Part shown: positions 3,396 to 63,595 of the stretch, in pieces
Layout: every line of letters begins with the position of its first letter
How positions within the stretch are numbered: the stretch's first letter is position 1
Sequence record: KT184314.1
Length of the DNA: 64,000 nt
Direction: 5' to 3' (one strand)
Source of the DNA: Enterobacteria phage KhF2
The notes under the pieces: generated by a model
Databases searched by the model: none
Told to the model about the DNA's origin: nothing
Seen by the model: the letters and a program-made list of their open reading frames with translations, nothing else
Translations under genes and position numbers: made by a program

Positions 3396-4505
3396 TTAGA
3401 TTTCACGTTTACGCTGAGAGATAAGTTCACCAGCAGTGCCAACGATGACATGCAGAGCTTCAGTCTTGCCATCCCACGCTTTCAGTACCTTACGTTGATT
3501 ATCAACGATTGCTGCAACTTCATAACGAGACGAGCGCATCTTCATATCATTGTAATCAGTTGGAACAGATACAACATCTCGTGGATGGACACGAACCTTC
3601 AGAATTGTATCGCCTGAGAAGCAACGAACATAATCCCAAGCACCAACGTGAAGACCTTGAGAGCAAGTCACGTTACGGTTATTATCAACCATCCAACGTG
3701 GCATTTCTACAACGTTACCCAAATCATTAGGTACTTTGTAGGTGTGGGAGTCAACCAGCTTGCCTTCACGAGTGGATACTTTCTTCCAACCAATGATGTA
3801 GCCTTCCTCATCAATTTCGACATCAAGGTGAGATACGAAGCCCCAAAGTTGTTCTACAGAGTCTTTAGATGGGTTTTCCATCAGTTTTTCGAAGAACATC
3901 ACAAGGCGTTCAAAGCCTTTGTCTCCAGTCTTCATCATGTGAAGAATACGGTCAACCAGAGTAGAACGCATCTCAACAGCACCGTAGAATAGCTTGTCGC
4001 CTTTGATTGTGATAGCACCCTGAGTGAAGTTTTCGATAGACTTACGAATGTTCATCAGTTCAAATGCTTTCTTGAACTCACCTTTCACAACATGAACTAC
4101 AATCTCTTGATAGTTCGGATGAGTAGACTCAACAATTTCAGATTCTGAACCATAAGTCATAATTACAGAATCACCAGTAATCATGTACTCAATCTTGTCA
4201 TCTTTCTGCATAGCTTCGTGCAGTTTATTTACTGGAGCTTTCTGTACAGCGTCTTTAACTACCTTTTCAACTGGTTTTCCATCTTTCTTCTTAAAGGTCT
4301 TAGCAACTTGTTTCAAAGTCTTCGTAGCTGGTGTAGAAGTTGCCTTCTTATTCCCTTTTAAGGTTGCTTCATGACGCTCTACAGCACGACCGACTGAACG
4401 GGTTGAAGTATTAAATTTCTGTGCAATAGCTGTTTTAGTCAGCTTACCTTCTTTAACCAGTTTGTAAATTTCTGCGTCAATCTGTGCTTTAGTTTTAGTA
4501 GTCAT
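3396..4505 (-). CDS. rIIB: rIIB-like protein
   Basis: immediately downstream of rIIA in same orientation as in T4-type rII loci; N-terminal HTH-like segment; identity inferred from synteny not motifs. Confidence 0.45.
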   Translation of the reverse strand: MTTKTKAQIDAEIYKLVKEGKLTKTAIAQKFNTSTRSVGRAVERHEATLKGNKKATSTPATKTLKQVAKTFKKKDGKPVEKVVKDAVQKAPVNKLHEAMQKDDKIEYMITGDSVIMTYGSESEIVESTHPNYQEIVVHVVKGEFKKAFELMNIRKSIENFTQGAITIKGDKLFYGAVEMRSTLVDRILHMMKTGDKGFERLVMFFEKLMENPSKDSVEQLWGFVSHLDVEIDEEGYIIGWKKVSTREGKLVDSHTYKVPNDLGNVVEMPRWMVDNNRNVTCSQGLHVGAWDYVRCFSGDTILKVRVHPRDVVSVPTDYNDMKMRSSRYEVAAIVDNQRKVLKAWDGKTEALHVIVGTAGELISQRKREI

Positions 4506-4584: not shown

Positions 4585-6951
4585 TTAATCGTAAATTGTA
4601 GTCCCTTCTGGAACACATTTTACATCAAAACCTAAGAACTTACTCACTTCGATGGGTGACACTTTATTCCAATCTAAATGAGAAAGCAAGAAGTTTTCTT
4701 GTTTTCTTTTTGAAAGATAGTTTGTCACCTTAATAACCATACGGTCACCAGCTTTCTTAATTTTCTTGTAAAGCTTTGTATCGTTGTCAAGGCAGTCTTT
4801 CAAAGTTTTCAATACACTAATGGTATAAGTGTATGCAAATGGTGCAGCAACGTATTGGATTTTACCGAACATTGCCTCTACAGCCTCTTCATTTCCTTCT
4901 AGGAAGATAGTTTTGTTTGTATCCCTTGAATAACAATACCCGCGAGAAATCTTCCTGTTATTAAACGTAAAGTTTCTGGCAATAATCCAACTGCTTGTAA
5001 GGTCAAGGACACCATTCATATAGATACGCGTCATATATCTGTTATGGTTAATCCAGTGAACATCAGTTAAGCTGTCGTTCAAGAGTTTCTCATCTACTTC
5101 AATCCAATCTTCTGGTATCTTTTTCCAATTTGCTTTTCGGAAAACATAGACTGTCTTACCTGTAACATTAGCAACTGACTTAGCTACATCTTCTGGAGAT
5201 GAGCAAAAACATTCACCATCAACTGTGTCACCGATTGCCTTAATGTAAAGCTGAGGTTCTTCAATTGTGTCTAAGTCCTCTGACACCTCTTTGTAGGAGG
5301 CTACACCTTCTGCTGGAACAGCTTTCCAGAGTTTTACAACACCTCTTACAGCTTCTTTACGTTGGTAATGGTGTTCCTTATCAGACATTTTCACAATCTT
5401 TAACAAGCTTTTATCAAGTTTGTGCAGATTGATTAAGTCATCTAACTCTTTTTCAGTCGAGAATACAAAGACAATACCATTGTATCTGTGAAACAGACTT
5501 GACTCACTGGCATAGTCTCGACATGCACCACGCAAGATTTGGTTGCGTCCTACAGTCTTCTCAGTACCATTTTTATTGCGACGGTCATTTATAACAAACA
5601 AAAACTGTTCAATTTGGCTTTTACGCATTGCGCCAAAGATATTGAACATACTTGCCTCTTGAGTGTAGGAAAGTGCTGTTGCACGAATCTTACTCTCTAA
5701 AGAGTTGAACTTGACATAAGCAACTGGGTCATAAAGATAATCTACTTTAGGGATGTTGTTTCCGTTCCTATCAACCTTAATATTACCTTTACCGTCACGT
5801 TCATAAATGACTGAGCCGTCTTCTGCGTAGATAATTCCACGACGAATGTTTAGTAATTCTTCTTCCAGAGAATCAAGCTTAACGCCTCCCCACTCTAACT
5901 TTGGACACACAGCATTAAACATCTCTCGTGAGTTCAAACGTAACTCAGCATAAGCCTGTGCAGCATCCATGAGTGTAGGTTGACTGTTAACTTTCTTGAT
6001 AACATCCTTTGTAATTGCTTCAGTTATCTTTTTAGTAGCCTCAATGATAACATTTTTTGTCGTGTCATTCATCTGCAATGCTTCACGAGAAGCTGCAATA
6101 GCGACTGAACCAATAGGCATGTAGATGTTTACAAGGTCTACGCTCCTACGGAAAAATTCTGGCAATACTTTGAAGAAATCATCACCAAGTAATGCTTCCA
6201 TGTTAACAGGGTAGGCAATGTTACCCATCACCACATTAAACTCTGTCCTGTTATCACTAGAACGCCAGCTGTGCTTATGAATCATGGCATCATAAACACC
6301 TTCTTCACGGGCAATGACGTTCATATCTGCTAATACATCGTCGTACTCAATATTACTTTCTGGTTTTACAGTGAAGTATGAGTACACATTCCCAGCTTCT
6401 TCAAAGAACTTTGAGATACGGTGGTCAGCAACCGCCACACGTACAGCTAAACCATTAGGTTCTTTTGTTGGGTTAGTTGTCAGCTTAGTTACTTGAGGGA
6501 TACCATTCTCAAGATAAACAGAGTACTTATTAACAACACCATCAACATAGCTAGATACTGTGAATGACTGAGCAATTGCAAATGGTGACTTTGAGCCGAT
6601 ACCCATTGCACCAATGTAGTCATTAGAGTCATTCTTCGTAGAAGCTCCATAGTTTAGGTACAAACTCATAACTTTATCATGAGTCAATCCAGTTCCAAAA
6701 TCACGAACTTCGAAGTAAGGCTCAAAACGAGTAGGTAAATGCACATGGAACGGGATGTTCTCTTTTCCAGCCTCTTTCTGAGCATCTACTGCGTTACATG
6801 ACAGTTCACGAATCACTGCCCTTTCTTTAAAGGTATATACACCAGAACTCAAAAGGCTGAACATCTCAGGTGTCATTGTAATCTGTGCTTGAGACGTCTC
6901 TAAAGAAGTTGAACTCTTAATCACTTCTGCGTGGTCGTTTACCATGCGCAT
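4585..6951 (-). CDS. rIIA: rIIA protein (GHKL ATPase-like lysis inhibition/membrane integrity protein)
   Basis: 788 aa; N-terminal GHKL ATPase motifs RELSCNAVDA, RDFGTGL, GAMGIGSKSPF closely resembling T4 rIIA as I recall it. Confidence 0.8.
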   Translation of the reverse strand: MRMVNDHAEVIKSSTSLETSQAQITMTPEMFSLLSSGVYTFKERAVIRELSCNAVDAQKEAGKENIPFHVHLPTRFEPYFEVRDFGTGLTHDKVMSLYLNYGASTKNDSNDYIGAMGIGSKSPFAIAQSFTVSSYVDGVVNKYSVYLENGIPQVTKLTTNPTKEPNGLAVRVAVADHRISKFFEEAGNVYSYFTVKPESNIEYDDVLADMNVIAREEGVYDAMIHKHSWRSSDNRTEFNVVMGNIAYPVNMEALLGDDFFKVLPEFFRRSVDLVNIYMPIGSVAIAASREALQMNDTTKNVIIEATKKITEAITKDVIKKVNSQPTLMDAAQAYAELRLNSREMFNAVCPKLEWGGVKLDSLEEELLNIRRGIIYAEDGSVIYERDGKGNIKVDRNGNNIPKVDYLYDPVAYVKFNSLESKIRATALSYTQEASMFNIFGAMRKSQIEQFLFVINDRRNKNGTEKTVGRNQILRGACRDYASESSLFHRYNGIVFVFSTEKELDDLINLHKLDKSLLKIVKMSDKEHHYQRKEAVRGVVKLWKAVPAEGVASYKEVSEDLDTIEEPQLYIKAIGDTVDGECFCSSPEDVAKSVANVTGKTVYVFRKANWKKIPEDWIEVDEKLLNDSLTDVHWINHNRYMTRIYMNGVLDLTSSWIIARNFTFNNRKISRGYCYSRDTNKTIFLEGNEEAVEAMFGKIQYVAAPFAYTYTISVLKTLKDCLDNDTKLYKKIKKAGDRMVIKVTNYLSKRKQENFLLSHLDWNKVSPIEVSKFLGFDVKCVPEGTTIYD

Positions 6952-7489: not shown

Positions 7490-7511
7490 TAAAAAGGCTC
7501 CCGTAGGAGCC
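7490..7511 (-). terminator. rho-independent terminator (GGCTCC-CGTA-GGAGCC plus T-run) after Nampt-like gene
   Basis: perfect hairpin; A5 run 5' on plus strand. Confidence 0.55.
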
Positions 7512-7526
7512 TCTTATCATATACTT

Positions 7527-9308
7527 TTAAAGCTGCTTGTCAATATTATTTCGAATATCACCAAGAGTTGTGTATCCGAACTGCTCAGAGTCACTAAAGA
7601 CTAGACGTAAAGCACAAGCTGGATGTTCAAGTGCATCTGCAAAGCTCTGGAACCCATAGCCATCTACAGCTTTCAGATTTTCACCATCCCACATAGGTGC
7701 TACACCACCAAAAGCAGACTTCTTAACACCACTATCTGTTTTAGGGTCTTTTGCAAGCATAATCTCTTTACCACCAATGCTTGCAAGGGTTGCTTTGACA
7801 GCAAATGCAAAGGTGTCACGAGTCATGTACTGGTAAGTGTAAGAACCTACACCAAACACTACGTTAGAGCTTGCAAAACCCATTTCATACAAACGCTTCA
7901 GTATTTCATTTGCACGTTCCAACGTGATAGAGTCGCCATAAATAAGTCCAATATGCTCATCCAGTACCTTAAAACCTTTAGAGTTAATAGTTCCTCCAAA
8001 GATGTTATACAGTGTCTTGATAGCTCCATCAATCTCAGCTACAGGACGTGTTACAACGTTTGCAGAACCAACCATATAAGCATTTTTCAACATCACTGTA
8101 TCAGCAACTTCAAAGTCTTCTCTGTCAACAACCATCTCGTAGCCTTCTGACAGTAGCCATCCAGCAATACCATAGTTGATGTTCTCAAGCTTCATGTTCA
8201 GAACAGCATTCAACATTGTGTCACTGGCTTCCAGCTTGCTTAGGTGCTCGTAATAAGCCTTCTTAGCACATTCTAAGTGGATTGCTTTATAACCTGTGAC
8301 AATATGTACAGGGTCTCCAGAGTCAGGGCGAATTACCAGTTTGCCATCACGTCCCATAATTTCTTTACGAAGTGCTGGTAAGATTTCTGACACAGTTCTC
8401 CAGAAGTTATAAGTATCTGAAACAATGCTTGCAATACCTGTTGGGTAAGTTTCTGTTAAGAAACGACGGAAGGTTTGTAACTCACCTTTAAAGCGTCTTT
8501 CTTCTTCAATCAACTCATTACCACCTTCCCAAGCAATGTTTGCACACATTACAGAGTGCTCAGTGGCTGGTACAGAACTACCAATATCAGAGATTGGGTA
8601 GGACTGTCCATAGATTCGTTTAGCCGTGTATACAGCAGGGAAGCTATCAGTCCCTTTAAAGCTGGTTAAGTGACCTACAGCGTTAAATGCGTCATCAGTA
8701 AAGCCGGACATACCACGCATAGCAAAATCATGGCACTGATAAGGTAAATGTAAGTCATTGTCACAAGTAAGGTCAGCCCACTTCTTACAGATGCGTTTGT
8801 AATGCAATGCAATAGTTGCAATGGTGCAAGCCTTCCAAATTTCAGCAGAGAAAGCATCTTCCAGATAACCTGCTACCCAATGAAAACCTGAAACAGTGTT
8901 CTGAAAGACAATCATCGGGACACGCATTGGAACAACTGTGCCTTCTTCTACAGCGTATACTTCAACTGGTAGATAACCTAAGTCGTGAAGTGCTTCCCAA
9001 TGCTCTCGACCGATAGCATCTTTACCCAGAACACCATTCATGACTTCTAAGATTTCATCAATGGCTTCTTTTTTATCACGTTCAAAGAAAGTGGCATTCC
9101 AGTGGTCTATCAAGTAATCTTTAACAAAACGTTGAATACCAAAAGCCACTACACCGTCAATTGCTAAGGGGCTGTTAAACCATTTGTCGCTACGTGGTGT
9201 CAGATTGAACATCAAGTACTCTGTTGCGCTAGGATACTGGTAAACATGACCAGATTTGTAAGCATCTGCATTTAAACCTGCTGGTACTGCATAAAGTGAT
9301 TTAGTCAT
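7527..9308 (-). CDS. nicotinamide phosphoribosyltransferase-like enzyme (Nampt/NadV family; possibly Namat of NARP1)
   Basis: 593 aa; Nampt-family signatures IASIVSDTYNFW and VIRPDSGDPV, GDSI motif; adjacent to Prs-like gene. Confidence 0.8.
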   Translation of the reverse strand: MTKSLYAVPAGLNADAYKSGHVYQYPSATEYLMFNLTPRSDKWFNSPLAIDGVVAFGIQRFVKDYLIDHWNATFFERDKKEAIDEILEVMNGVLGKDAIGREHWEALHDLGYLPVEVYAVEEGTVVPMRVPMIVFQNTVSGFHWVAGYLEDAFSAEIWKACTIATIALHYKRICKKWADLTCDNDLHLPYQCHDFAMRGMSGFTDDAFNAVGHLTSFKGTDSFPAVYTAKRIYGQSYPISDIGSSVPATEHSVMCANIAWEGGNELIEEERRFKGELQTFRRFLTETYPTGIASIVSDTYNFWRTVSEILPALRKEIMGRDGKLVIRPDSGDPVHIVTGYKAIHLECAKKAYYEHLSKLEASDTMLNAVLNMKLENINYGIAGWLLSEGYEMVVDREDFEVADTVMLKNAYMVGSANVVTRPVAEIDGAIKTLYNIFGGTINSKGFKVLDEHIGLIYGDSITLERANEILKRLYEMGFASSNVVFGVGSYTYQYMTRDTFAFAVKATLASIGGKEIMLAKDPKTDSGVKKSAFGGVAPMWDGENLKAVDGYGFQSFADALEHPACALRLVFSDSEQFGYTTLGDIRNNIDKQL

Positions 9309-9323
9309 CTTTTAATCTCTCTC

Positions 9324-9344
9324 AAAATGGGGCTTGGAAGCCCC
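9324..9344 (-). terminator. rho-independent terminator after Prs-like gene
   Basis: GGGGC-loop-GCCCC hairpin followed on minus transcript by AUUUU. Confidence 0.5.
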
Positions 9345-9353
9345 TATAAAGTT

Positions 9354-10250
9354 TTAATCAAGGTTTGCTACAGTAACTTGGCTATAATGTGTTAAGCCAC
9401 GGTCTTTAGCTTCCCCTAAAGAGTTTGTAGTGTAGATATGGTCAATACCATTGTCAAGCAAGTTTTCAACATCTTTAGAGAAAATACCATGAGTTACATA
9501 GAGTTCCACACGTTTTGCACCTGCTTCACGAAGATGTTTGGCTGCTTCTATGAAGGTTCGACCTCCATCACAAATATCATCCAGAATCATGACAGTTTTA
9601 TCTGTCAAATCAACATCGTCAAGGATTCGCATACCAGTAATTTCACCAGTCTTAAGGTTACGCACCTTAGACATTGTGATGTATGGTTTATCCACCTCTT
9701 TAGCAGTCTCTGCAATCTTCTTAGCAGCACCTGCATCTGGGGCTACTAAGTAATCAATCAGTGGGTCATTTGCGTAGTGAACTGCAATCTCCTTTTGAGG
9801 AATACTCTGGAAGCAGTTAAACAGGTTATCTGGAACGTAACTGTGAGGGTCAACTGCACAGACTGCACCAAATCCCATTGCATTTACCTGTTTAGCAAAA
9901 ACCTTTAAAGCTGCTGCGTCGCCTTTAAACATGTGACGGTCATAACGTGCATTTGGTAAGTAGTAAAAGATGACAGTCTTTAAAGCATAATCATGAGGAA
10001 TTAAATCATCAATTGCTTCTTTAGCAAGTGCCACAGCAAACAATGTATCCTTATCATAACCTTTTACAATCATAATCACATTGTTGATGGATGATGCTGC
10101 ATAAGCAGTGAAATCAACAAACTCTGGCGAAAAGTGTCCACCAATCTCACCAGAAGGAAATTGGATGATGTTAAACTCTTCTTCATGAGTTCCTTTAGTT
10201 GGTGAATGAACTGTAACACGGATAGATGTTTTCATAGTTTTCTCTCTCAA
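9354..10250 (-). CDS. ribose-phosphate pyrophosphokinase-like enzyme (PRPP synthetase family; possibly Adps of NARP1)
   Basis: 298 aa; Prs motifs LVAPDAGAAKK and ILDDICDGGRT (PRPP-binding loop). Confidence 0.8.
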   Translation of the reverse strand: MREKTMKTSIRVTVHSPTKGTHEEEFNIIQFPSGEIGGHFSPEFVDFTAYAASSINNVIMIVKGYDKDTLFAVALAKEAIDDLIPHDYALKTVIFYYLPNARYDRHMFKGDAAALKVFAKQVNAMGFGAVCAVDPHSYVPDNLFNCFQSIPQKEIAVHYANDPLIDYLVAPDAGAAKKIAETAKEVDKPYITMSKVRNLKTGEITGMRILDDVDLTDKTVMILDDICDGGRTFIEAAKHLREAGAKRVELYVTHGIFSKDVENLLDNGIDHIYTTNSLGEAKDRGLTHYSQVTVANLD

Positions 10251-10525
10251 TCAAAAGTTACGTTTGTTACTGCCATTGCAGATTTGCATTTTGCAGGGTC
10301 TACAACGTGATAAAGTACACTACAGTTACCTGTGCTGTCTGGTACAGGTTTAACCCATTGTTGCTTGACAGTTGGTTCGCCTAAGTCTTTGTAAGAACCA
10401 TCTGTAAAGTTGTTTACCATCTCAAGTGCAATTGGCTCTGGAACATGACCACGTATCATGTACATTTCACAACCATTACCTCCTTCACTGACTAATGGTA
10501 AAATCTCCCACTTTTCTTTAGCCAT
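10247..10525 (-). CDS. hypothetical protein
   Basis: 92-aa ORF, stop/start overlap with neighbours. Confidence 0.5.
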   Translation of the reverse strand: MAKEKWEILPLVSEGGNGCEMYMIRGHVPEPIALEMVNNFTDGSYKDLGEPTVKQQWVKPVPDSTGNCSVLYHVVDPAKCKSAMAVTNVTFD

Positions 10526-11033
10526 TATAAGTTGCCCTATAAACTGTCTCGAACTTCAACAGGAGAGATATTGCCAAATCTGTATAGTTGTTGTCAAGCA
10601 CATCTGGCATATTATTTTTGATATATTTCTCTTGCTCTTCATAGGTCATCTTAGGGATACTTAGGAGGCTATCTCCTTGCTTCTGGTTATCAGTTTTAGT
10701 TTGGATAAACCAGTTCGCACAGTGATGTTCACCACCTTTTGTAACAGGTTTGTGGTGGCCTAGTGTAAATGTTTGCTTACCCGTATACCTGCAAAGATTG
10801 TTCAGTGTTGCAATGGTGTTCTTCACAACACACCATTCATACAGGTTATCTATTGTGTAGTGTGGGTAATAACGGACAAGTGCTCTTTCACGGAAGTTAT
10901 CACGATTCCAAAGAACCATGTGATTAGAATTTGAAGGGTCATATTTGTGGGAGTCTATAAACTCTTGACGCTCATCAAAGCTGAGTCTTAGAACTGACAT
11001 TGCAACCGAACGTTTCAGGTTTGACAGATACAT
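10518..11033 (-). CDS. putative HNH (His-Me finger) homing endonuclease
   Basis: motif GHHKPVTKGGEHHCANW resembles HNH core (HH...GG...N); free-standing between metabolic genes. Confidence 0.4.
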   Translation of the reverse strand: MYLSNLKRSVAMSVLRLSFDERQEFIDSHKYDPSNSNHMVLWNRDNFRERALVRYYPHYTIDNLYEWCVVKNTIATLNNLCRYTGKQTFTLGHHKPVTKGGEHHCANWFIQTKTDNQKQGDSLLSIPKMTYEEQEKYIKNNMPDVLDNNYTDLAISLLLKFETVYRATYNG

Positions 11034-11084
11034 TTTACCTCCAAAATAAAAAGGGAACCTTTACAGTCCCCTTATAGTATCTGT

Positions 11085-13308: not shown

Positions 13309-15453
13309 TTACATAGAAATTCTGTCACGAATCTCAGCGATTTTTGCATCATTCATTCGAGATTCACCTTTAATCTTAGTCCACCCAAGATATCCGCACA
13401 CCCTGTTAATCACAGAGATGTCGTGTGAATGGCAAACCTCACATTCTTCAACATCAGCCTTTGGTCTGTTACCACAATGTTCACAGATTGCTAAGTCAAA
13501 GTTAAGTCCCTGATAAAAACCCTTCAACATCCCTCTGGTAATACAACTTTTAAGTGCTGGCAAGTTTTCTGGGTTAGCTACCCTTACATACTGGATTCTG
13601 CCGCCTCTACAGATATGGAAGAATGGCTCTTCTAAGTCCTGCTTCTCAAATGGTGAGATGTCTGCTGCAACATTCATATGGAAACTGTTTGTAAAGTATT
13701 CCTTGTCAGAGACACCTTTAATGACGCCAAACATATCTCTGAACTGTTTTAACTGAGTTCCACAAAGTGATTCTGCTGGAGTGCCATATACCGCATACAA
13801 GAAGCCATCTTCGTTCTTAAACTCTTCAGTTTTCATGTTGATGTATTCCAGAACATCATATGCAAAACTATAGCCTCCAACTTCATGAAGTCGTTTACCT
13901 TCAGCAAGAACAGACAGCTCATCAAGAGCAGTAACCCCAAAAGAAGCTGTGAAGGACTTCACGATATCCCAACCAACCTTGTCAGTAGGTTTCTTAGTCC
14001 CTTTGTACAGACCACCTTGTGTGAATGCAAGAGGGTTAGAACTTGCTGGCATATTAGCAATCATTTCGTAGCGTTTCTTGTGGAAGCTGCGAATCATCTC
14101 TAGGTACTTATCAAGCTCTTTCCAGAAATCTAAACCATTCTCTTTAGAATACTGGTAAATCATTGGTAAGTTCAAAGATACAGCACCAATGTTAGCACGA
14201 CCAACGTAGAACTCTTCCCCATCCTCGTTAAGATATGGAGATAAGAAGGCTCTACAACCCATCGGCGAGATTACCTTGCCAGAACGCTCAAAAGCTTCTG
14301 CTACAGCACCATGACCAGATACACTTAAGAAATCTGGATACATCGCTTTAGAGCAACACTCTATAGCTTTACTGTACAGGTGGCCTTGACAGATATTCTC
14401 ATTATGTCTCTTCTGGTCATAAATATAAACCAGTTTAGGGAATACAACAGGTTTCTTGCTCTTACCTTGTCCATTCATACGAACATCTAGGAGAGTACTT
14501 GCAATCATATATTGCAGTCGGTTATCTTCATTAGACATATCTGAGTCAAGTAACCCGAATGTCAAAGTTGTAAATGCAAAATCCCCACGGCTACAAGGTA
14601 CGGTATTTAGTTTCATTTCAAGTGACTGGAAACCTTGAGTTAGTTCAATCTGTAGCTGCTCCATTACATAATTGTGGTAATGCTCTTTAGGAATACCATA
14701 AGATGATGCTTTCTCAGCATGATAGCGTAGAGACTTCTTAGCATACGGTACAAGTACCTTATCAATCTCTGCTAAAGTAAAACCACCAAATTGCTGTGCA
14801 GTTGCTGAAAGTACTACGTCACCAATAACCTGCAACGCTGACAGTACAGATTTAGGTTCACAGTACTCAATGCCGGACATTTCAAAGCCACCTTTTAGTA
14901 CTTTACCAATGTCAAACAGGCAACAGTTAATACCACCAAAAATCAGGTCTCTCAAATCGTGGATATAGATAAAGCCTTTCTCAATGGCTTCAAGTTCCTC
15001 TGGTGTTAGATGATACTGTTTAAATATTTCTTTAGTCAGGTAACCACGGATAATTGAACCTTTCGTAGAAATTAAACTGCTGTCAAAGTTAGCATTTTCA
15101 CGGTCACCTAAGAAGAGTGTATCTTTAGTCTTCTGGTAGAGTTCGTCCCAATTTTGAGCAACCTCTTTACGGTAATTTCTGTATGTTGAGTAAGACTCAT
15201 AAATCTCGTGATTGACCTCTGCCAAAGCACCTTCAACAATACTGTGAATATCATTTACCGAGATAAGCAAATTATTCTGCTTAGTGGACTTTACCAAAAT
15301 CCTCATGAATGCTGACTCAAGAGCTTGGGTAACATCTGGTGGAAGTTCTTTATATCCAACCCTGTTAGCTGACTTAGCTACTGCTGCTAAAACTTTTTTG
15401 ATATCGGGTTCTTCAAGTGAGCCGTTCTTTTTAATAATCTGTACTTTGTTCAT
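13309..15453 (-). CDS. nrdD: anaerobic ribonucleoside-triphosphate reductase
   Basis: 714 aa; C-terminal Zn-ribbon CEHCG...CEVCHSHD and glycyl-radical motif RVCGYLG. Confidence 0.85.
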   Translation of the reverse strand: MNKVQIIKKNGSLEEPDIKKVLAAVAKSANRVGYKELPPDVTQALESAFMRILVKSTKQNNLLISVNDIHSIVEGALAEVNHEIYESYSTYRNYRKEVAQNWDELYQKTKDTLFLGDRENANFDSSLISTKGSIIRGYLTKEIFKQYHLTPEELEAIEKGFIYIHDLRDLIFGGINCCLFDIGKVLKGGFEMSGIEYCEPKSVLSALQVIGDVVLSATAQQFGGFTLAEIDKVLVPYAKKSLRYHAEKASSYGIPKEHYHNYVMEQLQIELTQGFQSLEMKLNTVPCSRGDFAFTTLTFGLLDSDMSNEDNRLQYMIASTLLDVRMNGQGKSKKPVVFPKLVYIYDQKRHNENICQGHLYSKAIECCSKAMYPDFLSVSGHGAVAEAFERSGKVISPMGCRAFLSPYLNEDGEEFYVGRANIGAVSLNLPMIYQYSKENGLDFWKELDKYLEMIRSFHKKRYEMIANMPASSNPLAFTQGGLYKGTKKPTDKVGWDIVKSFTASFGVTALDELSVLAEGKRLHEVGGYSFAYDVLEYINMKTEEFKNEDGFLYAVYGTPAESLCGTQLKQFRDMFGVIKGVSDKEYFTNSFHMNVAADISPFEKQDLEEPFFHICRGGRIQYVRVANPENLPALKSCITRGMLKGFYQGLNFDLAICEHCGNRPKADVEECEVCHSHDISVINRVCGYLGWTKIKGESRMNDAKIAEIRDRISM

Positions 15454-63422: not shown

Positions 63423-63498
63423 TGGAGAATCCGAAGGGACTCGAACCCTTATAAACCTGTTTTGCAGACAGGCACATAGCCATTTCTGTCACGGATTC
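63423..63498 (-). tRNA. tRNA-Cys (anticodon GCA)
   Basis: 76 nt cloverleaf folded by hand: acceptor GAATCCG/CGGATTC, T-arm AAGGG-TTCGAGT-CCCTT, anticodon arm CCTGT-CTGCAAA-ACAGG, encoded CCA. Confidence 0.8.
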
Positions 63499-63502
63499 AA
63501 AT

Positions 63503-63595
63503 TGGAGGAAGATACCAGACTTGAACTGGTACACCGATTTCTCAGCTACTGGCAGTTTAGCAAACTGCTCCCTTACCTTTTAGGGTTAATCTTCC
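63503..63595 (-). tRNA. tRNA-Ser (anticodon GCU), type II with long variable arm
   Basis: 93 nt: acceptor GGAAGAT/ATCTTCC, 3-bp D-stem, anticodon arm GCAGT-TTGCTAA-ACTGC, variable arm 5-bp stem with GAAA loop, T-arm ACCAG-TTCAAGT-CTGGT, encoded CCA. Confidence 0.8.

Follow-up and report, generated by a model that had tools for sequence, protein, structure and literature searches.

A very probable NARP1 counter-defence operon, encoding Adps and Namat, in the Felixounavirus KhF2

The DNA analyzed here, a stretch of 64,000 nucleotides from Enterobacteria phage KhF2 (KT184314.1; the window), belongs to a Felixounavirus and shares 99.7% nucleotide identity in the region described with phage LF82P5; related phage records number 253–257. 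Two neighboring genes lie co-oriented on its minus strand, separated by a 45-nt spacer. A sequence-only reading had recognized them as a Prs-like and a Nampt-like gene, and both ORFs are present on that strand at the positions it gave. We name them here by their predicted functions and list them with the features that surround them.

10247..11033, minus strand: two small upstream genes, positional orthologues of Bas63 gp78 (10247-10525) and gp77 (10518-11033), from gene order
9354..10235, minus strand: adps, predicted ADP-ribose pyrophosphokinase (Prs-like), 293 aa from the ATG
9329..9344, minus strand: adps-namat intergenic hairpin GGGGCU-UCCA-AGCCCC followed by AUUUUG; 6-bp GC stem, z -1.84
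7527..9308, minus strand: namat, predicted nicotinamide ADP-ribose transferase (Nampt-like), 593 aa
7485..7515, minus strand: intrinsic terminator 3' of namat, ending the transcription unit; hairpin 7515..7492, then a U-run

The family assignments of both proteins are far beyond chance, and three profile collections agree on them. The Prs-like protein matches Pribosyltran and Pribosyl_synth in Pfam, ribP_PPkin in NCBIfam (7.7e-36) and phrog_619 in PHROGs (4.7e-97), and the Nampt-like protein matches NAPRTase and NAMPT_N, PRK09198 (4.3e-140) and phrog_448 (1.4e-201), respectively. All four peptides quoted in the earlier reading (LVAPDAGAAKK, ILDDICDGG, SIVSDTYNFW, and VIRPDSGDPV) were found. 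The mechanical ORF for adps begins at a TTG at 10250 (9354..10250, minus strand, 298 aa). We consider the ATG at 10235 the likely start, giving 293 aa: a GAGAG ribosome-binding site precedes it by 8 nt, the stop codon of the gene upstream overlaps the TTG, and the annotation of gp79 in phage Bas63 begins at the same ATG.

Each gene had been thought to carry its own terminator, which holds for namat only. The terminator scan found a 10-bp stem with five GC pairs and a U-run 3' of namat, with a folding energy of -16.6 kcal/mol (z -3.76) that was equaled by 0 of 200 shuffled sequences; the scan called no terminator in the 45-nt spacer, which holds just the uncalled 6-bp hairpin listed above. Between the same two genes, other Felixounaviruses carry an HNH homing-endonuclease gene. 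Upstream, the gp78 and gp77 orthologues, so named by a positional match of gene order to the Bas63 map, abut adps with no terminator between them, and the nearest terminator-like site upstream of the gp77 orthologue is at 11073..11051 in the same scan. These two genes are probably co-transcribed with adps. Across the eight flanking ORFs, the only Pfam matches were two domains of unknown function, and PHROGs returned families of "unknown function" and, for the gp77 orthologue, a weak HNH-like match.

The closest studied relative of the locus is operon 79-80 of phage Bas63 (JohannRWettstein; MZ501086), which is in the same genus, has the same gene neighborhood and encodes proteins of the same lengths (293 and 593 aa). 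The shared order runs nrdG, four small genes, gp77, gp78, 79, 80 and, further on, rIIA and rIIB. The Prs-like protein is 78% identical to Bas63 gp79 over 293 of 293 aa, and the Nampt-like protein is 98% identical to gp80 (584 of 593) over its full length, both without gaps. NARP1 was discovered and genetically validated in these Bas63 genes, whose loss sensitized the phage to SIR2-HerA and was accompanied by lowered NAD+ (bioRxiv 10.1101/2024.02.11.579819). In an independent Bas63 knockout screen, either single deletion caused a 1e4-1e6-fold loss of plating on Sir2-HerA, and complementation rescued it. Bas63 Adps could not be purified; the evidence from this phage consists of genetics and infected cells rather than in vitro assays.

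In the mechanism proposed for the pair, NAD+-depleting defenses (SIR2-HerA/Nezha, type I Thoeris, DSR1/2, SEFIR, and similar systems) break NAD+ down to ADP-ribose plus nicotinamide. With its Prs scaffold, Adps would transfer the beta-gamma pyrophosphate of ATP to the distal ribose of ADP-ribose to form ADPR-PP, and Namat, built on a Nampt scaffold with an adenine-recognizing entrance clamp, would combine ADPR-PP with nicotinamide to yield NAD+ directly. Such a route would bypass both the NMN intermediate and host NadR/PncC. Under the other reading considered earlier, the pair would carry out canonical salvage, with a true PRPP synthetase and a true Nampt producing NMN that host NadR/PncC then convert to NAD+. 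The names in use favor salvage: GenBank records all label the pair ribose-phosphate pyrophosphokinase and nicotinamide phosphoribosyltransferase, and the Pfam, NCBIfam, and PHROG names read likewise. Against it, Bas63 keeps its protection from SIR2-HerA even when the host is deleted for both pncC and nadR, and infected cells accumulate ADPR-PP, which was seen only with wild-type Bas63 plus defense (bioRxiv 10.1101/2024.02.11.579819).

The residues of Adps bear on the same choice. Two sites could be placed by alignment with Adps of Vibrio phage ICP1, for which structures and kinetics are available (PMC13586617).

9552..9581, minus strand: Adps donor-binding PP-loop DDICDGGRTF, residues 219-228, aligned with ICP1 Adps D212-F221 (DDICDGAASF)
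9666..9668, minus strand: Adps Lys190, equivalent of the essential ICP1 Adps Lys185

The role of the PP-loop has been described for the ICP1 enzyme, in which the K185A substitution abolished ADPR-PP formation (PMC13586617). ICP1 Adps is a PRPS-like two-domain enzyme, like window Adps, and although the two are only 32% identical, they have in common the DDICDG motif and, at ICP1 positions Arg87, His121, Asp161, Lys185 and Asp212/213/216, the catalytic set R97, H131, D167, K190, D219, D220, and D223 of the window protein. ICP1 Phe92 is replaced by Met102 in both window and Bas63 Adps, and Phe18 has no secure equivalent in the window, where the N-terminal alignment is poor. E. coli Prs (b1207) shares the PRPP-synthetase fold and conserves R96, H131, D170, and the DD...D acceptor-site residues, but it is 22% identical to window Adps and has DDMIDTGGTL at the PP-loop position (DDMIDTGGT versus DDICDGGRT). 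The C-terminal alpha11-alpha12 segment of Prs is missing from window Adps, leaving a gap of ~19 residues against E. coli Prs, and is also missing from ICP1 Adps. Window Adps fell far short of all NCBIfam Prs equivalog cut-offs (103.6 versus 296, 63.7 versus 438, 62.1 versus 518 bits, and others likewise); the sole Prs model passed was the broad subfamily TIGR01251 (123.6 versus 113).

Window Adps shows 100% identity to its counterpart in phage KhF3 and carries an allele different from that of Bas63. Identity to the Bas63 protein is 59% over residues 1-92, 67% over 1-160, and 92% over 161-293, and the 5' ~485 nt of the gene form a mosaic patch of 62-80% nucleotide identity between flanks of 91-100%. 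The window type, at 90% or more amino acid identity, occurs in 154 phage records, and proteins at 60-80% identity in 91; the Bas63 allele is the less common one. This patch raises the possibility that the N-terminal region has lost or changed its function, leaving the window phage with a crippled or altered NARP1, the more so as the genetic tests cover the Bas63-type allele only. We regard this as very improbable: the ORF is intact, neither allele has lost any of the catalytic or acceptor-site residues that were mapped, and the greater frequency of the window type argues for maintained function. The patch does not resemble decay; it looks like the product of old divergence followed by recombination, because it is gap-free and colinear at low nucleotide identity.

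Namat was examined for the two elements of the published selectivity clamp.

9162..9194, minus strand: Namat selectivity-clamp loop RSDKWFNSPLA, residues 39-49, identical to Bas63
7815..7847, minus strand: Namat selectivity-clamp helix motif GSYTYQYMTRD, residues 488-498, a published Namat signature

The helix has Tyr at both clamp positions and, as in Bas63, Met at its eighth position, where the paper lists mainly Asn or Val. The non-Namat counterparts read GGALLQKVDRD in Xanthomonas Nampt and GAQTYQRNTRD in H. ducreyi NadV. According to the published rule, the loop has either Arg at its third position or Lys/Tyr there followed by a stacking fourth residue, and the published example of Lys followed by a stacker is Bas63 itself. 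The window loop, S40-D41-K42-W43, fits this rule, and W43 is predicted to be the adenine-stacking residue.

The best structural match for Namat comes from the NARP1 system of SPbetaL1 (PMC12774641; 9W5W, 9W5X), which has the two-gene architecture, the Namat fold, and the clamp-helix motif in common with the window. In a sequence search of the PDB, window Namat matched 9W5W/9W5X best (1e-127), with mammalian NAMPT at ~1e-41. Its AF2 model (pLDDT 93.2) had 9W5X as the top Foldseek match, with a TM-score of 0.95 on the target, and sequence and fold both ranked Namat above bacterial NadV and NadV above mammalian NAMPT. The identity of 38% to SPbetaL1 Namat comes from the Foldseek alignment and includes insertion gaps. 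Each of the 19 ligand residues of SPbetaL1 Namat has a counterpart in the window protein that is either the same or a conservative replacement (D15, Y17, F195, R198, D221, A248, R327, D329, G458, D459, S460, G488, S489, Y490, Y494, T496, R497, D498, plus K42/W43), the stacking residue of the clamp loop being Arg40 in SPbetaL1 and K42-W43 in the window; the catalytic histidine maps to H251. Window Namat also passed PRK09198 (467.5 versus 405), a model that we judge not to discriminate Namat from Nampt because its best-aligned solved relatives include Namat. The profile and fold comparisons proposed with the earlier reading thus ranked Namat first by fold and left the Prs equivalog cut-offs unreached. 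Its caution that sequence alone cannot separate Prs/Nampt from Adps/Namat proved too strict, since the clamp-helix motif, the clamp loop, the DDICDG loop, and orthology tell them apart.

SPbetaL1 is also the biochemically reconstituted Adps/Namat pair, and its Adps took ADPR and not the Prs substrate. This finding speaks against canonical salvage, as do the Namat clamp of the window protein, its Adps loop in place of DDMIDTGGT, and the failure to reach any Prs equivalog cut-off, and we hold out only a very slim chance for that reading. The enzymology of NARP1 (ADPR + ATP to ADPR-PP, then ADPR-PP + nicotinamide to NAD+) has been demonstrated with homologues from SPbetaL1, ICP1, DyoEdafos, and P. 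foliorum only.

A second use of the pair has to be weighed alongside NARP1, in which Namat would act in NARP1 under NAD+ depletion and also make relevant amounts of NMN from host PRPP in ordinary infection. The Nampt-type catalytic core is intact in window Namat (D15, Y17, F195, R198, D221, H251, R327, and D329), SPbetaL1 Namat makes NMN from PRPP in vitro when ADPR-PP is absent, an activity that clamp mutants retain, and the effects of g79 and g80 in the Bas63 screen extended to plating on two other systems, the Ec86 retron and hhe. When offered both substrates, however, Namat strongly favors ADPR-PP; ADPR-PP appeared only with a defense system, and NARP1 is described as acting only after NAD+ cleavage. 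Moreover, no NMN adenylyltransferase was found among the listed annotated Bas63 genes. Such dual use is distinctly unlikely in our estimation.

Other NAD+ reconstitution systems were compared with the pair. The NARP2 system (Nampt plus Nmnat of Vibrio phage KVP40) and the Nampt/NadV enzymes (H. ducreyi 9KE8, Xanthomonas 7YQO, and human NAMPT) share the Nampt fold, its core, and the use of nicotinamide with window Namat; unlike the window pair, they use PRPP to make NMN and have neither an adjacent Adps nor the aromatic clamp. In the published Namat/Nampt phylogeny, Adps-associated Namat stands apart from NARP2 Nampt. NARP2, consisting of Nampt and an NMN adenylyltransferase without Adps, does not fit the window pair with its adjacent Adps, and NARP3 (a PnuC/NadR pair) was rejected as unrelated to the window pair. 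NARP1-AP, which adds the Macro-domain phosphatase Adpp (bioRxiv 10.64898/2026.01.28.702374), and RyDEP-containing NARP1 loci, which add an RyR-domain glycosidase (bioRxiv 10.64898/2026.05.28.727677), have the same Adps/Namat core, whereas the window has no such third gene. These extended forms were rejected as there is no room for them in the 45-nt spacer and the eight flanking ORFs gave no Pfam match to a Macro/Adpp or RyR/RyDEP gene.

Of the two readings originally put forward, NARP1 is thus the one supported by orthology to Bas63 79-80, by gene order, and by the Adps and Namat signatures, and we conclude that the pair is very probably a NARP1 counter-defense operon (Adps plus Namat) of a Felixounavirus. 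As such, it is already known, its genes being close copies of characterized Adps-Namat. By analogy, we infer that the window alleles, in particular the divergent N-terminal allele of Adps, would act like their characterized homologues, and the pair would be expected to protect the phage against NAD+-depleting defenses.

The only detail not previously described is a domain inserted in Namat.

8025..8297, minus strand: lineage-specific inserted alpha/beta domain of Namat, residues 338-428, ~85 residues, ~72-77 of them extra relative to insertion-free forms

The length of the Nampt-like protein had been singled out earlier. The figure of 593 aa is correct, but it is not anomalous: Bas63 Namat also has 593 aa, and all Ounavirinae forms have 582-610. 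The length is normal for the lineage and arises mainly from this domain, which is located just after the RPDSGDP active-site strand and, among phage genomes, was found only in the FelixO1-like group and phages related to it. SPbetaL1 Namat (crystallized chains of 491-496 aa) lacks both this ~77-residue domain and a ~15-residue insertion after residue 257, and its loop at the site of the inserted domain reads GDPEAKDELVRK. Independent folding of the domain is a high-confidence prediction, and a search for fold relatives detected none. In other clades, the same Namat loop carries unrelated insertions. Bas63 Namat shares the domain together with both clamp elements, and the window and Bas63 copies differ at 2 of 91 positions despite their different Adps alleles; this result ruled out a co-variation of the Adps N-terminal allele with the insertion that would have hinted at contact. 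We think it unlikely, though conceivable, that the domain is a functional add-on and not decoration; if so, it might dock Adps for the hand-over of ADPR-PP, gate access to the active site, or protect the enzyme against an inhibitor of the host, and the loop would be a site of recurrent innovation in a counter-defense enzyme.

The main value of the assignment lies in annotation, and it raises no new question, NARP1 having come to light in a sister phage within the genus and its enzyme structures having been solved since. More than 250 FelixO1-like phage records still label the pair ribose-phosphate pyrophosphokinase and nicotinamide phosphoribosyltransferase, and they include many candidates for therapy or biocontrol directed at E. 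coli, Salmonella, and Shigella. The window module, lacking an Adpp phosphatase, would probably give no protection from aRES-type depletion that yields ADPR-1P. Re-annotation of the pair as a counter-defense module predicts resistance to NAD+ depletion of the SIR2, TIR, and SEFIR types.

Both open reading frames described from the sequence alone were present on the minus strand, and all four quoted peptides were found in their translations:

9354..10250, minus strand, Prs-like ORF (adps), 298 aa from TTG
7527..9308, minus strand, Nampt-like ORF (namat), 593 aa
9309-9353, minus strand, adps-namat spacer of 45 nt, with a short GC hairpin and then AUUUUG (z -1.84)
7515..7492, minus strand, strong intrinsic terminator after namat (-16.6 kcal/mol, z -3.76)

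Profile searches placed the first protein in the PRPP-synthetase/phosphoribosyltransferase superfamily (Pribosyltran, 1.2e-11; Pribosyl_synth, 4.5e-10; TIGR01251, 7.7e-36; phrog_619, 4.7e-97) and the second in the Nampt family (NAPRTase, 2.3e-34; NAMPT_N; PRK09198, 4.3e-140; phrog_448, 1.4e-201). The two-gene observation was therefore confirmed, with small corrections. Translation of adps probably begins at an ATG (10235; 293 aa), because GAGAG precedes this codon and the TTG lies across the stop of the gene before it. Each gene had been credited with its own terminator, which holds for namat but not for adps, as the terminator scan called nothing in the spacer.

The NARP1 pathway of NAD+ reconstitution was discovered in the Felixounavirus Bas63 (Escherichia phage JohannRWettstein) as genes 79-80 (bioRxiv 10.1101/2024.02.11.579819). 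In the Bas63 genome (MZ501086), these genes measure 882 and 1782 nt and lie in a neighborhood shared with the window: nrdG, several small genes, 79, 80, three small genes, rIIA, and rIIB. The window Adps is 78% identical to gp79 and the window Namat 98% identical to gp80 (584/593), both over the full length and without gaps. The Nampt-like protein, noted earlier as long, has the same length in gp80, and 593 aa is normal for the lineage.

The sequence-only reading held that Adps and Namat could not be told from canonical Prs and Nampt by sequence, a view that our comparisons overturn for both proteins. In the Adps of Vibrio phage ICP1, the acceptor site comprises Arg87, His121, Asp161, Asp212, Asp213, and Asp216, Lys185 on the catalytic hairpin is essential, the remodelled donor-binding PP loop (Cys215-Ser220) is conserved among Adps homologues, and the C-terminal alpha11-alpha12 module of Prs is missing (PMC13586617). 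In an alignment with Bas63 gp79, ICP1 Adps, and Escherichia coli Prs, the window protein keeps every listed residue (R97, H131, D167, K190, D219, D220, and D223). Its PP loop reads DDICDGGRTF as compared with DDICDGAASF in ICP1 Adps and DDMIDTGGTL in E. coli Prs, and it lacks the C-terminal Prs segment. In profile searches, the protein fell far short of all NCBIfam Prs equivalog thresholds and passed only the broad subfamily model. The weak points are ICP1 Phe92, which is Met102 in both the window Adps and Bas63, and ICP1 Phe18, which could not be placed in the unreliable N-terminal alignment.

Namat is distinguished by a selectivity clamp consisting of a helix motif (GS-X-phi-X-phi-X-phi-TRD), whose aromatic residues 3 and 7 stack on the adenine of ADPR-PP/NAD+, and a variable loop with an extra stacking residue, which is either an Arg at position 3 or, as in Bas63, the residue at position 4 after a Lys/Tyr (PMC12774641). 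The window Namat carries the helix GSYTYQYMTRD (residues 488-498) and the loop S40-D41-K42-W43, whereas the aligned helix segments are GGALLQKVDRD in Xanthomonas Nampt and GAQTYQRNTRD in Haemophilus ducreyi NadV. The SPbetaL1 Namat sequence was rebuilt from the PDB alignment, reproducing 19/19 residue numbers quoted in PMC12774641. By alignment mapping, all 19 residues are identical or conservative in the window protein (D15, Y17, F195, R198, D221, A248, R327, D329, G458, D459, S460, G488, S489, Y490, Y494, T496, R497, D498, plus K42/W43), and the catalytic histidine maps to H251. A PDB sequence search ranked Namat entries 9W5W and 9W5X first (1e-127), ahead of H. ducreyi NadV (2.6e-104), Xanthomonas Nampt (5e-52), and mammalian NAMPT (about 1e-41). 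The structural comparison agreed: with an AlphaFold2 model (44 homologues; pLDDT 93.2, pTM 0.92), Foldseek returned the same order, with a TM of 0.95 on the Namat target. All database annotations imply canonical Prs/Nampt salvage, a reading that is very improbable.

Namat-type proteins of about 495 aa with a GS[YF]TYQYNTRD clamp motif also occur on large chromosomal contigs of Klebsiella, Cronobacter, Kosakonia, Phytobacter, and Erwinia, annotated as nicotinate phosphoribosyltransferase. They fit a recent report of bacterial NARP1 homologues.

Given orthology to Bas63 79-80, the Namat clamp, and the Adps loop and residues, the NARP1 interpretation was correct, and the pair is very probably a NARP1 operon; we infer the activity of the window alleles from orthologues and homologues. 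Orthology and residue conservation come from this analysis, and chemistry and phenotype from work elsewhere. Adps would pyrophosphorylate ADP-ribose and Namat would ligate ADPR-PP to nicotinamide, so that NAD+ destroyed by SIR2/TIR/SEFIR-type effectors would be restored from its own cleavage products. When Bas63 lacks 79-80, plating on SIR2-HerA drops and NAD+ collapses; protection persists in a host without pncC and nadR, excluding the NMN route, and ADPR-PP (m/z 720.010) was seen only with wild-type Bas63 plus defence (bioRxiv 10.1101/2024.02.11.579819). The SPbetaL1 homologues convert ADPR and ATP to ADPR-PP, and then ADPR-PP and nicotinamide to NAD+ (bioRxiv 10.1101/2024.02.11.579819). Type II Thoeris withstands NARP1, which does overcome type I Thoeris, DSR1, DSR2, SIR2-HerA, and SEFIR. 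In an independent genome-wide Bas63 knockout study, either single deletion caused a 1e4-1e6-fold plating loss on Sir2-HerA, restored by complementation. Since SPbetaL1 Namat shows PRPP-dependent activity in vitro (PMC12774641), a secondary activity of this kind is possible, in addition to the NARP1 function and not replacing it.

The operon has the plain two-gene form, its spacer leaving no room for a third gene, and no Macro (Adpp) or RyR (RyDEP) domains were found in eight flanking ORFs. NARP3, a PnuC/NadR pair, is unrelated. The window spacer is endonuclease-free, with its hairpin, whereas several Felixounaviruses carry a 163-aa HNH homing-endonuclease gene between adps and namat:

2097-2588 (locus positions), Salmonella virus VSe102, HNH homing-endonuclease gene
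2096-2587 (locus positions), Salmonella phage ST11, HNH homing-endonuclease gene

In ST11, NARP1 may be damaged, because adps is shortened and namat is annotated as two CDSs.

Further genes nearby match Bas63 by position:

10518-11033, minus strand, gp77 orthologue, upstream of adps
10247-10525, minus strand, gp78 orthologue, adjoining adps
4585-6951, minus strand, rIIA (g84)
3396-4505, minus strand, rIIB (g85)

The gp77 and gp78 orthologues abut adps with no terminator between, the nearest upstream terminator-like site being at 11073..11051, and an anti-defence transcription unit of four genes may end in NARP1. In the Bas63 knockout screen, gp77, described as GIY-YIG, counters the Ec67 retron; its window counterpart has no Pfam match and only a weak HNH-endonuclease-like PHROGs match (2.2e-06). 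According to the same screen, rIIB/rIIA counter qatABCD, which places a cluster of counter-defence functions within about 8 kb of NARP1.

Two insertions set the window Namat apart from SPbetaL1 Namat and from bacterial forms of ~495 aa: one of ~77 residues (about 351-427) that follows the RPDSGDP strand, and one of ~15 residues after residue 257. In the phage collection, the large insertion occurs only in 253 Ounavirinae-type records, with 45-54% identity in Moogle/Susp-like phages; the large protein database holds related long forms (582-610 aa) from Yersinia, Pectobacterium, and Salmonella phages. Other Namat clades have unrelated insertions at the same loop. Modelling predicts that the large insertion folds as a compact alpha/beta domain (pLDDT 93-96 in context; pLDDT 95 and pTM 0.83 alone), which may, with low probability, be a functional add-on. 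The main text of the Namat paper does not mention it, although Bas63 Namat was modelled there (PMC12774641), and we found no description in the searchable literature.

The 5' ~485 nt of adps form a mosaic patch (window ~9750-10290, minus strand) with 62-80% nucleotide identity to Bas63 and no gaps, between flanks at 91-100%. At the protein level, identity is 59% over residues 1-92 and 92% over 161-293. FelixO1-like phages carry two Adps N-terminal alleles, for which the searchable literature yielded no description. The window type is commoner (about 154 records at >=90% versus about 91 of the Bas63 type at 60-80%); genetic testing has been limited to the Bas63 type. Both alleles keep all mapped catalytic residues, and a comparison of the window with Bas63 shows no co-variation of the Namat insertion with the Adps allele.

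Felixounavirus LF82P5 matches the region at 99.7% identity, and roughly 200 FelixO1-like phages of Escherichia, Salmonella, Shigella, and Citrobacter match it at 90-99%. The remaining window follows the Felixounavirus layout (terminase, portal, capsid, tail, DNA polymerase, nrdAB/DG, rIIA/B, and the first tRNAs). At its edge, tRNA-Cys(GCA) and tRNA-Ser(GCT) lie side by side (63423-63595, minus strand), presumably where the tRNA cluster typical of these phages begins. An unbroken 714-aa ORF (13309-15453, minus strand) occupies the position of Bas63 nrdD (large subunit, anaerobic ribonucleotide reductase), whose annotation there consists of two pieces joined across a homing-endonuclease gene; matched by position, nrdD is another site of variable homing-endonuclease presence.

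The operon is already known: NARP1 was first described from this operon in this phage genus. The remaining value lies in the re-annotation of FelixO1-like phages and in two small points, the inserted domain of Namat and the Adps alleles.
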